From Candidatus Omnitrophota bacterium (GTDB lineage: Bacteria > Omnitrophota > Gorgyraeia > Gygaellales > Profunditerraquicolaceae), in assembly GCA_049517335.1 (NCBI GenBank), contig JBEKSD010000001.1:92776-156775 (forward strand): a stretch of 64,000 nt of DNA. The letters are read 5' to 3'. A program made the translations under genes and the position numbers. The notes beneath the pieces were generated by a model. The model was not told the DNA's origin and did no database searches. It worked only from the letters and a program-made list of their open reading frames with translations. Positions 23,919-30,396 of this stretch are shown here, one piece after another (position 1 is the first letter of the stretch; each line of letters starts with the position of its first letter).

Positions 23919-24482
23919 ATGAGCTATAAAAACGAGACTTTAAGAAAATACCTTGATGATTTAGCGGCTAAACTTCCTGCTCCCGGAGGTGGTTCAGCGT
24001 TGGCAATGAACGCGGCTTTAGGCGCGAGCTTAATCACTATGGTTATAAATTTCACCCTCGGCAAGCCAAAATACGCTAAATATGAAACGGAGCTGAAAAA
24101 AGATTTGATAAAATCCGAGAAATTAAGGGATGAATTTCTGCACTTGGTAGATTTGGATATCGCAGCTTATAATAGTAAGGATGCGCGTAAAGCGCTGAAT
24201 GTCCCTTTTATGGTTAGCCGCCTTTGTTTTGAGGGCATAAAACTTTGCCCTGAGCTGGTAAAGAAGGGTAACGTTAATTTAATCAGCGATGTGGTGGTAG
24301 CGGCCATACTTTTAGAAAGCGCTTTTGTGAGCGCGTATTTTAACGTTGAAATAAACTTAAAAATTTTAGAGGATAAGGAATTAAGCAGGACAATAAGAAA
24401 AGAACTGGCGATAAAGAGGAAAGAAATTACTAAAATCAGGCTAAAAACGGAGGAAAAAGTTGGCGAAATTATTAGAGGGTAA
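23919..24482 (+). CDS. cyclodeaminase/cyclohydrolase-family protein (FchA-like methenyl-THF cyclohydrolase)
   Basis: The LPAPGGGSALAMNAALGASL motif of the formiminotransferase-cyclodeaminase domain. It overlaps folD downstream. Confidence 0.65.
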   Translation: MSYKNETLRKYLDDLAAKLPAPGGGSALAMNAALGASLITMVINFTLGKPKYAKYETELKKDLIKSEKLRDEFLHLVDLDIAAYNSKDARKALNVPFMVSRLCFEGIKLCPELVKKGNVNLISDVVVAAILLESAFVSAYFNVEINLKILEDKELSRTIRKELAIKRKEITKIRLKTEEKVGEIIRG

Positions 24483-25302
24483 ACCCATTGCGGAAAAAAT
24501 AAAGGAAGAAATACGCTCGGAAGTTGCCGCATTAAAGATACGCCCGGTTTTAGCATCCATACAAATCGGAGAGAATGCCGGAGCCGCTGCTTACGTAAAA
24601 TCGCAGGCTAAAGTTGCCGAGAGTTTAGGCATTGAATACCAATTGCATAAATTGGCAGCGGAAACAGCCGAAACGCATTTAATTGATTTTATCCAGAAAT
24701 TAAATCTGAATAAATCAGTGCACGGAATAATCGTGCAGATGCCCCTTCCCGCGGGAATAGATTATAAAAAAATAAGCCAGTATATTGAGCCGAAGAAGGA
24801 CGTAGAAGGGATGCATCCGGCTAATATCGGTAAGCTTATTTTCGGCAAGGCAAAGTTAGCCCCTTGCACCGCAGCTTCGGTAATGGAATTAATAAACTCA
24901 ACCGGCGTTGATTTATACGGAAAAGAAGTTGTTATCGTAGGCCACAGCGAGATAGTAGGTAAACCGCTTGCTCTTTTATTGCTTGAAAAGTTTGCCACGG
25001 TTACAGTCTGTCATATCGGCACCAGCAAAGCAGGCAAACTTGAGGAGCATGTTAAAAAAGCTGAGGTCCTAATCGTGGCAGTGGGTAAAGCCGGCCTGAT
25101 TAAAGGGAATTTAGTTAAAGAAGGTGCTATCGTTATTGATGTCGGTATTAACCGCGTTGCGGATAAAATAGTCGGGGATGTGGAGTTTGAGGAGGCAGAG
25201 AAGCGTGTCTCCTATATTACGCCGGTTCCCAGAGGCGTCGGCCCGCTGACCGTGACTATGTTGATGCGCAATTTAGTTGAGACAGCCAAGTTGCAACAAT
25301 AG
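24460..25302 (+). CDS. folD: bifunctional methylene-THF dehydrogenase / methenyl-THF cyclohydrolase
   Basis: Rossmann motif VVIVGHSEIVGKPLALLL, and the PVPRGVGPLTVTMLMRN C-terminus. Confidence 0.9.
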   Translation: MAKLLEGKPIAEKIKEEIRSEVAALKIRPVLASIQIGENAGAAAYVKSQAKVAESLGIEYQLHKLAAETAETHLIDFIQKLNLNKSVHGIIVQMPLPAGIDYKKISQYIEPKKDVEGMHPANIGKLIFGKAKLAPCTAASVMELINSTGVDLYGKEVVIVGHSEIVGKPLALLLLEKFATVTVCHIGTSKAGKLEEHVKKAEVLIVAVGKAGLIKGNLVKEGAIVIDVGINRVADKIVGDVEFEEAEKRVSYITPVPRGVGPLTVTMLMRNLVETAKLQQ

Positions 25303-25632
25303 ATGAAAACCATAGCTTTATTGACCATATCCAATGTCTTTATGACATTTGCTTGGTACGGTCATTTGAAGTTTAAGAATTCACCCCTATGGATTGTAGT
25401 TTTAGTAAGCTGGGGAATCGCGCTTTTTGAGTATTGTTTTCAGGTGCCGGCAAACCGCATCGGCCACTACCGTTATTCCGCAGCCCAGCTTAAGACCATT
25501 CAGGAAGTTATTACGCTGGTAGTTTTCAGCGTCTTTTCAATATTATACCTCAAGGAAGAATTCCGCTGGAACTACGCGGTTGGTTTCTTATGTATCTTAG
25601 CGGCAGTATTTTTTATCTTTAAAAAGTGGTAA
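25303..25632 (+). CDS. DMT-superfamily small membrane protein (DUF486-like)
   Basis: 109 aa with about three TM segments and a FEYCFQVPANRIG motif. Confidence 0.55.
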   Translation: MKTIALLTISNVFMTFAWYGHLKFKNSPLWIVVLVSWGIALFEYCFQVPANRIGHYRYSAAQLKTIQEVITLVVFSVFSILYLKEEFRWNYAVGFLCILAAVFFIFKKW

Positions 25633-25850
25633 ATTTTTGCGGGTCCTGTCGAGTCGCATTTTCGCAGGATTCGTTTAGATTTTTCCTCCGCTTTGCGGGG
25701 TCGGCAAAGACTTTTCGTATTTTTGGCGGCTGCGGAACTCGCGCCTCGAGCTCTGGCTCTCGGCGCCCAAACATCCTCACCGTTCCGGTGTTGTCGCTTC
25801 GCTCCACCGGGATTCCCAAAAATACTCAAGTTCTTTGCCTAAGAATCTAA
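25633..25850. other. GC-rich non-coding block, candidate structured RNA of unassigned family
   Basis: About 220 nt visibly richer in G+C than the flanks, with many short hairpins (CCGCTTTGCGG, CACCGTTCCGGTG, GGCGCC/GAGCTC palindromes). The only ORFs are Arg-rich reads of GC-rich sequence. I could not recognise a tRNA, tmRNA, SRP or RNase P signature. Confidence 0.25.
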
Positions 25851-25930
25851 ATTCGCTCGAAATCACGACAGATTCATTAAGGATATTTGTTCTGAATTAG
25901 GTATCGTGTCTCTGGAATTATGTTGGAAAC

Positions 25931-25952
25931 CTATAAACTACACGGCAGATAG
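25931..25952 (+). repeat. 22-bp direct repeat, left copy (CTATAAACTACACGGCAGATAG)
   Basis: 19/22 identical to the copy at 26446-26467. It ends 6 bp before the ATG of the PIN-like ORF. Confidence 0.6.
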
Positions 25953-25958
25953 ACTATT

Positions 25959-26445
25959 ATGGCTTTAAAAATAACATTAGATACAAATTGTCTTTTTGAT
26001 TATTTTGAACGTAATCCTCAATATATTGAAAAGTTAATAGAGTTTCAGAACGAGGGTAAAATAGAACTTGCAATTACAACAAGAGTTCAAGCTGACACTT
26101 TCGGTAAAAGAGAAGATAGCCCTATTTGGCAGAAAAATAAAATCCTTTCCCTGTATTACAATTGGGAGTATTGGAAGGCACGATGTTTCTTATTATGATA
26201 GTGGTGATGTTTATGCAGGCGACGATGATAATTTGCAGGATTTAATTCAATCTTGCATAGGGAATGACGTAAAAAGAATCATCGATGTCGACCATCTGAT
26301 TGCTCACATTATTAATAAGAGAGATATTTTTGTAACGAGCGATACTGACGATTTTATAAAACACAGAGATTGTTTGGAGCAAAAGTGTAGTATCAAGATT
26401 ATGACTCCAGAAGAATGTATCAATTTTCTGAAAAGTCAAACATAG
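25959..26445 (+). pseudogene. PIN-like nuclease gene split by a frameshift
   Basis: Frame A (25959..26198) begins MALKITLDTNCLFDYF..ELAITT, which gives PIN N-terminal Asp and Glu positions. Frame B (to 26445) carries DVDHLIAHIINKRDIFVTSDTDDF, a PIN C-terminal acidic motif. The frames can be joined by a 1-nt slip in the A-run GCAGAAAAATAAAAT near 26130-26145. The islet is locally AT-rich. Confidence 0.55.
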
Positions 26446-26467
26446 CTATAAACTATACGGCACGTAG
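26446..26467 (+). repeat. 22-bp direct repeat, right copy (CTATAAACTATACGGCACGTAG)
   Basis: Begins 1 bp after the stop of the PIN-like ORF. It pairs with the 25931-25952 copy. Confidence 0.6.
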
Positions 26468-26515
26468 CCCAAAGGTTAGTGGTTATTTTATAAAATTTTA
26501 GGAGTTTTGGCTTGA

Positions 26516-26538
26516 GCGTGCGTTAAAATTTTTGGCAC
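26516..26538. promoter_or_regulatory. palindromic operator-like site GCGTGCgttAAAATTTTTgGCAC (site 1)
   Basis: Dyad-symmetric GTGC..AAAATTTTT..GCAC. A second near-identical copy lies about 112 bp downstream. Confidence 0.35.
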
Positions 26539-26632
26539 AGCTATTAAAACACAGTCTGCAAGGATTTACGACGAGCTAAGGCGTGAGAATGCGATAGTCT
26601 AATCGAAAGCGAGGAGTAAACCGCGGCAGACG

Positions 26633-26653
26633 GCAAAAATTTTTAGCACGCGG
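26633..26653. promoter_or_regulatory. operator-like site GCAAAAATTTTTaGCACGCgg (site 2), 35 bp upstream of the prepilin-like ORF
   Basis: Shares the AAAATTTTT(G/A)GCAC core with site 1, and the GCGTGC/GCACGC ends are mutually inverted. It sits where a promoter for the 26688 ORF would lie. Confidence 0.35.
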
Positions 26654-26687
26654 AAGACAAAACGCCTAAAAGGAAAATAAGACAAAG

Positions 26688-26933
26688 ATGAAGAAGATTA
26701 AAACTGGTTTTATGCTTATAGAGTTCTTGTTGGTTCTGGTGATAATTATGTTTGTTGTATTCAAGGTATGGGATATTTATTTTAAGAAGCCGGCCTTGAA
26801 CAAAGAGACCCAAAAAGTTATGACTGAGCAAGGCGTAGACACTACAAATTATAAAACAATTAGTGATAGCATCAAAAATAAGGTAGAGGATATTCAAAGT
26901 CAGCATATTAATGAGCTGATGAAAATACAATAG
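26688..26933 (+). CDS. prepilin-like small protein (type IV pilin N-terminal cleavage/methylation motif)
   Basis: MKKIKTG|FMLIEFLLVLVIIMFVV matches the class III signal G/F-x-x-x-E followed by a hydrophobic helix. Only 81 aa. No other pilus genes are adjacent. Confidence 0.5.
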   Translation: MKKIKTGFMLIEFLLVLVIIMFVVFKVWDIYFKKPALNKETQKVMTEQGVDTTNYKTISDSIKNKVEDIQSQHINELMKIQ

Positions 26934-26980
26934 AGCGGAAATACCCTTGCAGCTTTAGATATTTATGGTAAAATTTTGCA

Positions 26981-27850
26981 ATGACCTTTAAAGAAAAATT
27001 ATTAGCAGGAAAATTCGTAGTTACCTCGGAAATCGGCCCGCCAAAGGGTATTGAAACCCATAAATTATTGGAAGACGCCGAGCTTGTGCGCGGTAGGGTT
27101 GACGGAATCAATGTCACGGACCTACAGAGTTCAGTGATGCGGCTTGGATCGCTTGTTGTCTGCAGCCTCTTAAAACAAAAAGGCTTTGAGCCGATATTCC
27201 AGATTACCTGCCGCGACAGGAACCGCTTGGCGCTGCAATCTGATATTTTATCCGCAGCTGCCTTAGGTATAGAAAATTTGTTGATTTTAACCGGCGACCA
27301 TACCACCATGGGCGACCATCCTGAGGCAAAGCCGGTATTTGATTTGGATTCGGTGCAGCTTTTAGAGGTGGTGCGTAAACTCCAGGCAGGCACAGATATG
27401 AAAGGTAATAAACTGGAAGGCGCTGCGCCGAAATTTTGCGTGGGCGCGGTAGTCAATCCGGGCGCAGACCCTATTGAGCCGCAGATTCTTAAAATGGAGA
27501 AAAAAATAGAAGCCGGAGCGCAATTTTTTCAGACCCAGGCCATTTATGATATAAGAATATTTGAAAATTTTTTAAGCAAAGTCAAACATCTTAAAGTCCC
27601 CATTTTGGGCGGGATAGTATTATTGAAGTCCGCGGGTATGGCGCGTTTCATGAATAAAAATGTTGCCGGCGTAAGCGTGCCGGATAATTTGATTAAAGAA
27701 ATGGAAGAAACAAAAGATAAAGTTGCAAAATCCGTTGATATTGCCTCAAGGCTGATTAAAGAATTAAAACCCCTCTGTCAGGGCATACATATTATGCCCA
27801 TAGGCTGGGATACAAAAGTACCGTTAGTGTTAGACGCATCAGGATTGTAA
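26981..27850 (+). CDS. metF: methylenetetrahydrofolate reductase (MetF-family)
   Basis: FVVTSEIGPPKG, INVTD, and the overall MTHFR TIM-barrel pattern. It ends 2 bp before acsB. Confidence 0.75.
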   Translation: MTFKEKLLAGKFVVTSEIGPPKGIETHKLLEDAELVRGRVDGINVTDLQSSVMRLGSLVVCSLLKQKGFEPIFQITCRDRNRLALQSDILSAAALGIENLLILTGDHTTMGDHPEAKPVFDLDSVQLLEVVRKLQAGTDMKGNKLEGAAPKFCVGAVVNPGADPIEPQILKMEKKIEAGAQFFQTQAIYDIRIFENFLSKVKHLKVPILGGIVLLKSAGMARFMNKNVAGVSVPDNLIKEMEETKDKVAKSVDIASRLIKELKPLCQGIHIMPIGWDTKVPLVLDASGL

Positions 27851-27852
27851 TT

Positions 27853-30396
27853 ATGTCTCCCTTACCGCAAATTCCCGGAGCAAAGAAAAAAGGCGTATTG
27901 TTATTAAGCTCTAAGGAAGACTTTAATAAATTAGATAGTTTTCTTATTAACGATACTGTTTGTATCAGCGGTCCGGCGAAGTCTGCGTTTGATTTAGCCC
28001 GGTCCATAAATGAAAAATATAAAGTTGAAGTTAAGCTCGTAGCTGAGGGTAAATTGGAAGAAACGCTGCCTGTCGGTATTGAAGTAATGAGCAGCCCTAT
28101 TCAGGAAATTGTCGGCGAAGGCAGGGCAGAGGCGGTTAAATTCAAGGACGGGAAAGCCGTCGGTGCTTGTTTAGTTTTATTTACTGAAGACATAATTCAG
28201 GATAAAGGAGAAAATATGGCTGACTTACTTATACAACTGGGGACAAAAGGCACGGACGCGGTATTGAACCTTGCCAAGGATACGTTAAAAAAACAGATTG
28301 CTGAAAAAGGAAAAGATTCTAATATTTCTTTTCCGGAAACGAATTATTATTTTCCGCTTATCAATGCTTTGCTTAATATTGAAGTAAAGACGCTTCAGGA
28401 CTGCGAAAATGCCCTTATCCAGGCGGAAGGCTTAAGCAGTAATAAGCCGGCTAAGAGCGGGTTGAATATCGCTCCTCTTGGGGGGATATTGAATAAAGGG
28501 GTGGCTACATTAATTGCCGAAGAAATACTCGCTGCTTTATTTACTGCCAATAGCGCACATCCTAAGGGCGGGATCGGCTTTATTCCGGATAAGATTTTAC
28601 GTTCTTTAGGTTTACAGTTAGTTGACGGCAGGATTACCGGTATCGCCGTAATCTTAGGCCCGGCAAAAGATGCAGACGCTGCTGCAGATTTAATCCGCGA
28701 TTTCCAGTCTAAGAGCATTGTCAGCCTACTTGCCGGGAATATTAACGGCAATACCTTTCAGAAGCAACTGGAGAGTAAAGGCATTGAAATCGGCTTGGAT
28801 AATTATATTGTTCCACTGGGCGAAGATTACCTGTCGGCGATTTACGCGGTGAACTTCGCGGTAAGGGCGCCGTTAATATACGGAGGCTTTAAGCCCGGGC
28901 AGTGGGAAGGGGTTGCTGATTATATCCGCAACCGTGTGCCTGCGTTCGTTTTACTCTTAGGCCATGTTGATGAAATAATTGTTGCCACTGGTTTGGGTGT
29001 TTTAGCTTTCGGTTTACCGATTATTACGGATTTGGATATTCCTCAATTGGGGAAAATTGATACGACATTATTTGAGGCGCTGGTAACTGAAAAAGATTAT
29101 AAAAAACTGCCTTCAAAATGTATTTTGGCCAGAGGCATTAAAGTTAAAATGGCTGAAGTTGCAATTCCTATTCTTTATGCTGCGGCATTTGAAGGTGAGA
29201 GAGTAAGAAAAGAGCAGCTTTATGTGGAGTTCGGGGGAAAAGCCAGCAGCGCACTTGAGTTCTTAACCGCAAAAAAAGAAGAGGAAGTGGATGACGGCAA
29301 AATTGAATTGATCGGAGCGGACATTGATAAACTGCCACCTGGGAAAAAATCAATGCCTTTGGCAATTGTGGTTGATGTTTTTGGCCGCAAAATGCAAAAG
29401 GATTTTGAGCCGATTTTGGAACGCCAGATACACCGTTTTGTAAATTACGCTATGGGTATTATGCATATGGGCCAGCGCGATATGATCTGGGTGAGAATCA
29501 GCAGGGATGCCTTTAATAAAAGTTTCAGGCTAAAACATCTCGGAGTGGTATTGCACGCGATGCTGCATCAGGAATATAGCGCCATTGTGGATAAAGTGGG
29601 AGTAAAACTTTATACCAATCAGGCGGATGTGGAAAGATTATTAGCTGTCGCCAAGAAAACTTTTGATGAGCGCGATGAGCGTTTAGGCGGGATGACTGAT
29701 GAAAGCGTGGATACCTATTATTCCTGCCTTCTTTGCCAGTCATTTGCCCCGAACCACGTCTGTATTATTACTCCAGAACGCTTGGGGCTTTGCGGTGCCT
29801 ATTCGTGGCTTGACGGAAAAGCTTCTTATGAAATTATGCCTACCGGGCCGAACCAGCCGGTTAAAAAAGGAGCAGTGCTTGATGAGCGGCTGGGTCAGTG
29901 GGAAAACGTCAATGCTTTTGTTAAGGAAAAATCCAATAAGACTATTGATAAAGTAAGCATGTATTCGATGATGGATGGGCCGCAGTCTTCCTGCGGGTGT
30001 TTTGAATGCATCTTGGCGATAATCCCTGAAGCTAACGGAGTAATGATTGTTAACCGCGATTATTCCGGGATGACCCCTAGCGGAATGACCTTTACCACTT
30101 TGGCAGGGTCAGTCGGAGGAGGTGTACAGATACCAGGTTTCCTTGGAGTGGGGAAGTTTTATCTTTTGAGCAGGAAATTTATTTTCGCTGAAGGCGGCTT
30201 AAAGCGCTTAGTCTGGATGCCCAAAGAATTAAAAGAACTTTTAGGGGACAAATTGACCAACCGCGCCAAAGAAATAGGGGAGCCGGATTTAATTGATAAA
30301 ATAGCTGATGAGACTGTTGCCACGACATCCGATGAGCTCCTCAATCATTTACAAAAGGTTAGGCACCCTGCGCTTACGCTGGAGCCGTTGATGTAG
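27853..30396 (+). CDS. acsB: acetyl-CoA synthase catalytic subunit (AcsB/CdhC-type), with an N-terminal extension
   Basis: CLLCQSFAPNHVCIITPERLGLCGA gives the C-x2-C-x8-C-x9-C spacing of the A-cluster [4Fe-4S] ligands. SSCGCFECI gives the Cys-Gly-Cys Ni-binding motif. An N-terminal NYYFPLI region resembles ACS. About 120 in-frame residues precede an internal RBS and ATG at 28216. Confidence 0.75.
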   Translation: MSPLPQIPGAKKKGVLLLSSKEDFNKLDSFLINDTVCISGPAKSAFDLARSINEKYKVEVKLVAEGKLEETLPVGIEVMSSPIQEIVGEGRAEAVKFKDGKAVGACLVLFTEDIIQDKGENMADLLIQLGTKGTDAVLNLAKDTLKKQIAEKGKDSNISFPETNYYFPLINALLNIEVKTLQDCENALIQAEGLSSNKPAKSGLNIAPLGGILNKGVATLIAEEILAALFTANSAHPKGGIGFIPDKILRSLGLQLVDGRITGIAVILGPAKDADAAADLIRDFQSKSIVSLLAGNINGNTFQKQLESKGIEIGLDNYIVPLGEDYLSAIYAVNFAVRAPLIYGGFKPGQWEGVADYIRNRVPAFVLLLGHVDEIIVATGLGVLAFGLPIITDLDIPQLGKIDTTLFEALVTEKDYKKLPSKCILARGIKVKMAEVAIPILYAAAFEGERVRKEQLYVEFGGKASSALEFLTAKKEEEVDDGKIELIGADIDKLPPGKKSMPLAIVVDVFGRKMQKDFEPILERQIHRFVNYAMGIMHMGQRDMIWVRISRDAFNKSFRLKHLGVVLHAMLHQEYSAIVDKVGVKLYTNQADVERLLAVAKKTFDERDERLGGMTDESVDTYYSCLLCQSFAPNHVCIITPERLGLCGAYSWLDGKASYEIMPTGPNQPVKKGAVLDERLGQWENVNAFVKEKSNKTIDKVSMYSMMDGPQSSCGCFECILAIIPEANGVMIVNRDYSGMTPSGMTFTTLAGSVGGGVQIPGFLGVGKFYLLSRKFIFAEGGLKRLVWMPKELKELLGDKLTNRAKEIGEPDLIDKIADETVATTSDELLNHLQKVRHPALTLEPLM

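Follow-up and report, generated by a model that had tools for sequence, protein, structure and literature searches.

Gene content of the locus and its acetyl-CoA synthase

The analyzed window, a 64-kb stretch of DNA from a Candidatus Omnitrophota MAG, carries at positions 23919-30396 a cluster of fchA-like, folD, metF and acsB genes, all on the + strand, and every open reading frame that a first-pass annotation had reported there was recovered at the same positions. The fchA-like gene (23919..24482), which is syntenic in nearly all related loci, encodes a 187-aa methenyl-THF cyclohydrolase with an FTCD_C domain (Pfam PF04961, E 3.6e-45) that reached 138 bits against the NCBIfam FchA model, under its 275-bit cut-off. 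folD (24460..25302) encodes a 280-aa bifunctional methylene-THF dehydrogenase/cyclohydrolase (THF_DHG_CYH and THF_DHG_CYH_C), for which the top NCBIfam FolD models scored about 305 bits, under their equivalog cut-offs. metF (26981..27850) encodes a 289-aa MTHFR (PF02219, E 3.8e-36) that, among NCBIfam models, scored highest with the MTHFR half of a YitJ-type bifunctional enzyme (254 bits); no metV was found near it. The cyclohydrolase/FolD pair is thus close by, as annotated, but the distance of 2.5 kb given for it separates folD from acsB, and folD lies 1.7 kb from metF.

acsB (27853..30396) encodes 847 aa comprising, by Pfam, NCBIfam and PDB alignment, a probable FNOR-relic domain, a linker and the canonical bacterial ACS domains A1 to A3. 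At its junction with metF (27841..27855), an AGGA Shine-Dalgarno sequence (27841-27844) lies inside the end of metF, and the metF TAA (27848-27850) ends 2 nt ahead of the acsB ATG (27853-27855), in agreement with the translational coupling initially proposed.

The protein scored 975 bits against NCBIfam NF040764 (curated cut-off, 800), and among PDB entries it is closest to Carboxydothermus hydrogenoformans ACS (7zkj/1ru3; E 2e-205, residues 137-847 aligned). Domain A1 (residues 132-437; 28246..29163), which in bacterial CODH/ACS is the domain touching CODH, contains Pfam CODH_A_N at residues 144-229 and aligns to residues 31-316 of the C. hydrogenoformans enzyme. It is followed by A2 (residues 438-603; 29164..29661; PF03598 CdhC, E 1.8e-62) and by A3 (residues 604-847; 29662..30396; PF19436, E 1.7e-122), which bears the A-cluster. 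Both the [4Fe-4S] ligand motif C625-x2-C628-x8-C637-x9-C647 (29725..29793) and the Ni-binding motif Cys714-Gly715-Cys716 (29992..30000), already recognized in the first reading, align to solved ACS in identical blocks (CLLCQSFAP.HVCI..PER.GLCGA and SCGCFE), and all six cysteines are invariant in 117/117 homologues. Judged from its sequence, the 847-aa protein is a true AcsB of the bacterial type that retains its A-cluster ligands, and the acetyl-CoA synthase encoded at 27853-30396 is apparently functional.

Genes for cooS/acsA, acsC, acsD, acsE, fhs and cooC are absent from the whole 64-kb window, and gene calls across it bear out the initial impression that it shows no gene for CODH, CFeSP or MeTr. 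The remaining genes of the window are housekeeping genes, as are those in the 10 kb past its end, where cooS/acsA, acsC/D/E and fhs were not found either. Compared to Moorella thermoacetica CODH/ACS and the monomeric C. hydrogenoformans ACS (1oao, 1ru3, 7zkj), the Omnitrophota AcsB shares A1 to A3, with about 710 alignable residues, but adds a 113-residue flavoprotein-derived domain and a linker at the N-terminus, and its gene has no adjoining CODH gene. Unlike in the bacterial acsABCDE operon, acsB lies among housekeeping genes and is coupled to metF.

Identity and fold of the N-terminal extension

Homology to AcsB begins at residue 125-137, leaving about 121-131 extra N-terminal residues, close to the 120 first estimated. 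These comprise the extension proper (residues 1-113; 27853..28191), a vestige of the Rossmann subdomain with which FNOR-type flavoproteins (Pyr_redox_2) bind NAD(P)H, and a variable linker (residues ~114-131; 28192..28245) that holds the ancestral AcsB N-terminus. Mean pairwise identity is 0.50 in the linker, 0.69 in the extension and 0.78-0.84 in the AcsB core, and linker length ranges from 11 to 40 residues among homologues.

Foldseek matched an AF2 model of the extension (pLDDT 84) to the NAD domains of AIF, CoA-disulfide reductase, NADH oxidase and FFTR (TMq as high as 0.77, E ~1e-5), the fold by which two-dinucleotide-binding flavoproteins hold NAD(P)H. In the full-length model this fold was retained and linker residues 113-123 had pLDDT <50; with a pTM of 0.46, the model is uninformative on docking of the extension. 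Furthermore, a profile search covering 1.8 billion representatives returned as best non-AcsB matches Pyr_redox_2 proteins of 285-305 aa and ~420 aa (E 1e-28 to 1e-11), aligned at their residues ~111-222 and resembling PadH, NirB-N, CoADR and NorW-type reductases.

The extension has I-S-G-P-A-K-S-A in place of GxGxxG, and the FAD domain is missing. These observations make it very probable that the extension is the vestige of an FNOR flavoprotein attached to an intact AcsB. By its motifs the relic is not a redox module and is catalytically dead, because GxGxxG and all FAD-binding parts are lost. The fusion with an uncharacterised domain originally suspected is therefore half right: the fused domain is real, yet it can be identified as the part of a cooS-cooF-FNOR module's flavoprotein that binds NAD(P)H.

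The CooS-CooF-FNOR unit combines a Ni-CODH, the ferredoxin-like CooF and a FAD-dependent NAD(P) oxidoreductase of COG1251 (Whitham 2015; Geelhoed 2016; Inoue 2019, PMC6344411), and is known only by gene context (PMC6344411). Homology to this unit covers the FNOR subdomain that binds NAD(P)H; the source locus has lost cooS and cooF together with the FAD domain, GxGxxG and the C-terminal Rubredoxin_C domain, and the remainder is fused to AcsB. In the literature we found no report of a link or fusion between FNOR and AcsB, and no description of an FNOR relic on AcsB or of its reduction series.

Reduction states in related loci

We compared 80 syntenic loci from GTDB species genomes other than the source MAG. 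In type A, the order is metF-[cooC]-cooS-cooF-FNOR-acsB, the complete unit lying directly upstream of acsB and overlapping it (by 8 nt in ~11 loci), and FNOR (~420 aa) retains its cofactor motifs, with LGGGLxGLKAA in 28/29 and AAGD in 27/29 loci. Pfam assignments in this type were Prismane/CODH (E 1e-170), Fer4, Pyr_redox_2 with Rubredoxin_C, and CbiA. In type B, cooS and cooF are missing and metF is followed by a degenerate 295-aa flavoprotein and acsB, which overlap by 16-19 nt. In type C the whole flavoprotein is fused to AcsB (~1025 aa), whereas in type D, to which the source window belongs, only the middle flavoprotein subdomain is fused, without GxGxxG. Type E relatives have metF-acsB without any flavoprotein remnant. 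Both LGGGLxGLKAA and AAGD are gone from types B and C, except for one residual GD in L048. The free and fused states are exemplified by L008 (metF, a free-standing 294-aa flavoprotein and a 727-aa acsB) and L007 (metF, then a 1024-aa flavoprotein::AcsB fusion).

These states suggest a reduction series from FNOR to fused subdomain, whose order we infer from the states observed. An NJ tree of the AcsB core did not cleanly separate types B, C and D, and the core of one type D protein (L014) is 89% identical to that of a type B locus (L043). A single linear series would therefore need recombination or repeated events.

CODH loss, selection on the relic and a proposed history

Of the type A loci, 22/29 contain CooS, against none of those of types B (0/19), C (0/3) and D (0/18). 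The idea that the CODH gap is a mere window-edge effect does not hold, because cooS and cooF are deleted from the exact spot that they occupy in relatives, between metF and the flavoprotein. An ordinary split cluster, in which acsA/cooS and acsCDE lie elsewhere, AcsB enters a standard CODH/ACS complex and the added domain is irrelevant decoration, is unlikely. It gains from the searches having covered just ~74 kb of the source genome (on a 224-kb contig), from the 19 Omnitrophota species that encode CooS/F (PMC10066038) and from retention of the CODH-contacting A1 domain (pairwise identity, 0.78). Nevertheless, the cooS-cooF pair is lost at exactly the same position in 40/40 type B, C and D loci, and the FNOR cofactor motifs decayed after this loss, a decay that the disappearance of its electron-transfer partner would predict. 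In addition, 24 Omnitrophota species whose genomes encode neither AcsA nor CooS retain AcsB-E (Seymour 2023, PMC10066038). We thus lean towards genome-wide CODH independence of the source organism. That some Omnitrophota have partial Wood-Ljungdahl pathways lacking CODH has been published before and is not new here.

The extension is present in all of the best 120 AcsB homologues and intact in >100 species-level clusters. Its median dN/dS is 0.127 (the two closest pairs giving 0.11-0.14) vs 0.06-0.09 for the AcsB domains, values that rest mainly on closer pairs since dS is saturated for many others. A neutral remnant heading for deletion, with no present function, would fit the type E relatives, the decay of the linker and of the internal start (whose motif G[ED]xM is kept in 58/117 type D proteins, about half), and a relic evolving at up to ~2x the rate of the AcsB core. 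This reading is improbable given a dN/dS far below 1, 15 invariant residues among 68 sequences, and 60-73% conservation of the subdomain in type D vs 35-67% in full-length type B proteins at matched AcsB divergence. By these measures the FNOR relic is under purifying selection in >100 species; that it keeps a maintained structural role we judge evenly balanced.

The internal ribosome-binding site noted early on is present: AAGGAG (28205-28210) lies 5 nt ahead of an ATG (28216-28218; Met122), where unfused acsB genes begin MSDVLVQLGTKG at the equivalent position, and by this correspondence the element (28205..28218) is the ancestral acsB start. The perfect Shine-Dalgarno sequence and its location would suit a start-codon artefact in which residues 1-121 are untranslated or meaningless read-through. 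We consider this very improbable, as the 113 upstream codons are stop-free and conserved as protein in >117 homologues (dN/dS 0.13), the product folds confidently with known-domain homology, and nearly all type D loci couple the start corresponding to 27853 with the end of metF, the junction being 0-3 nt in most. Furthermore, the internal Met or SD is lost in L017, L018, L023 and L027, where the long form must be the product. Since the ancestral signals are intact in the source genome, the organism may produce a 726-aa short AcsB isoform in addition to the long one, and the short form could possibly be the main product.

Still NAD(P)H-binding and passing of reducing equivalents to AcsB (e.g. 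for A-cluster reductive activation) or MetF, for which a conserved Rossmann beta-alpha-beta fold between an MTHFR and a redox-activated metalloenzyme might speak, is hardly credible when the glycine-rich loop has become (D/S/E)-G-P-x-x-x-A in type D, with one residue inserted and an often acidic first position, no FAD domain or other cofactor site can take the hydride, and the motif is already decayed in full-length type B and C proteins.

Alongside the established homology, fold, synteny series, motif loss, purifying selection and intact A-cluster ligands, we consider it likely that the locus encodes a working AcsB that has no dedicated CODH and whose residues 1-113 are a dead FNOR relic. The ancestral operon would have been fchA-folD-metF-[cooC]-cooS-cooF-FNOR-acsB with an 8-nt FNOR/acsB overlap, a type still present in other Omnitrophota and in Elusimicrobia-labelled MAGs. 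Deletion of cooC, cooS and cooF in the source lineage would have placed FNOR directly after metF. The C-terminal dimerisation domain of FNOR and its two dinucleotide-binding signatures would then have disappeared, a frame change within the stop/start overlap would have joined the flavoprotein to AcsB, and two in-frame deletions would have left only the central Rossmann/beta-meander subdomain. The succession of these five steps is reconstructed from the observed states.

The relic would now be structural or partner-binding and non-redox, separately folded and flexibly tethered to AcsB. AcsB would work with the neighbouring MetF, FolD and FchA and with a methyltransferase and a corrinoid protein whose genes lie elsewhere. 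It could form acetyl-CoA from methyl-THF and external CO or, by analogy with Dehalococcoides, operate in the opposite direction, splitting acetyl-CoA so that C1 units enter folate metabolism and CO is released. CODH-less incomplete pathways in Dehalococcoides mccartyi (Zhuang 2014), Velamenicoccus archaeovorus-type Omnitrophota (Seymour 2023, PMC10066038) and some Auribacterota (PMC9324843) share AcsB without adjacent CODH, retained methyl-branch folate enzymes and the same predicted uses. Dehalococcoides differs from the source locus, which has an MTHFR coupled to acsB, and those papers treat pathway presence or absence, without AcsB domain architecture or locus history. Like other vestigial or pseudoenzyme domains, the relic is a once-catalytic Rossmann domain that lost its cofactor motifs and is under purifying selection inside another enzyme; unlike in those cases, each step from free enzyme to fused subdomain is recorded at the AcsB locus in extant intermediates.

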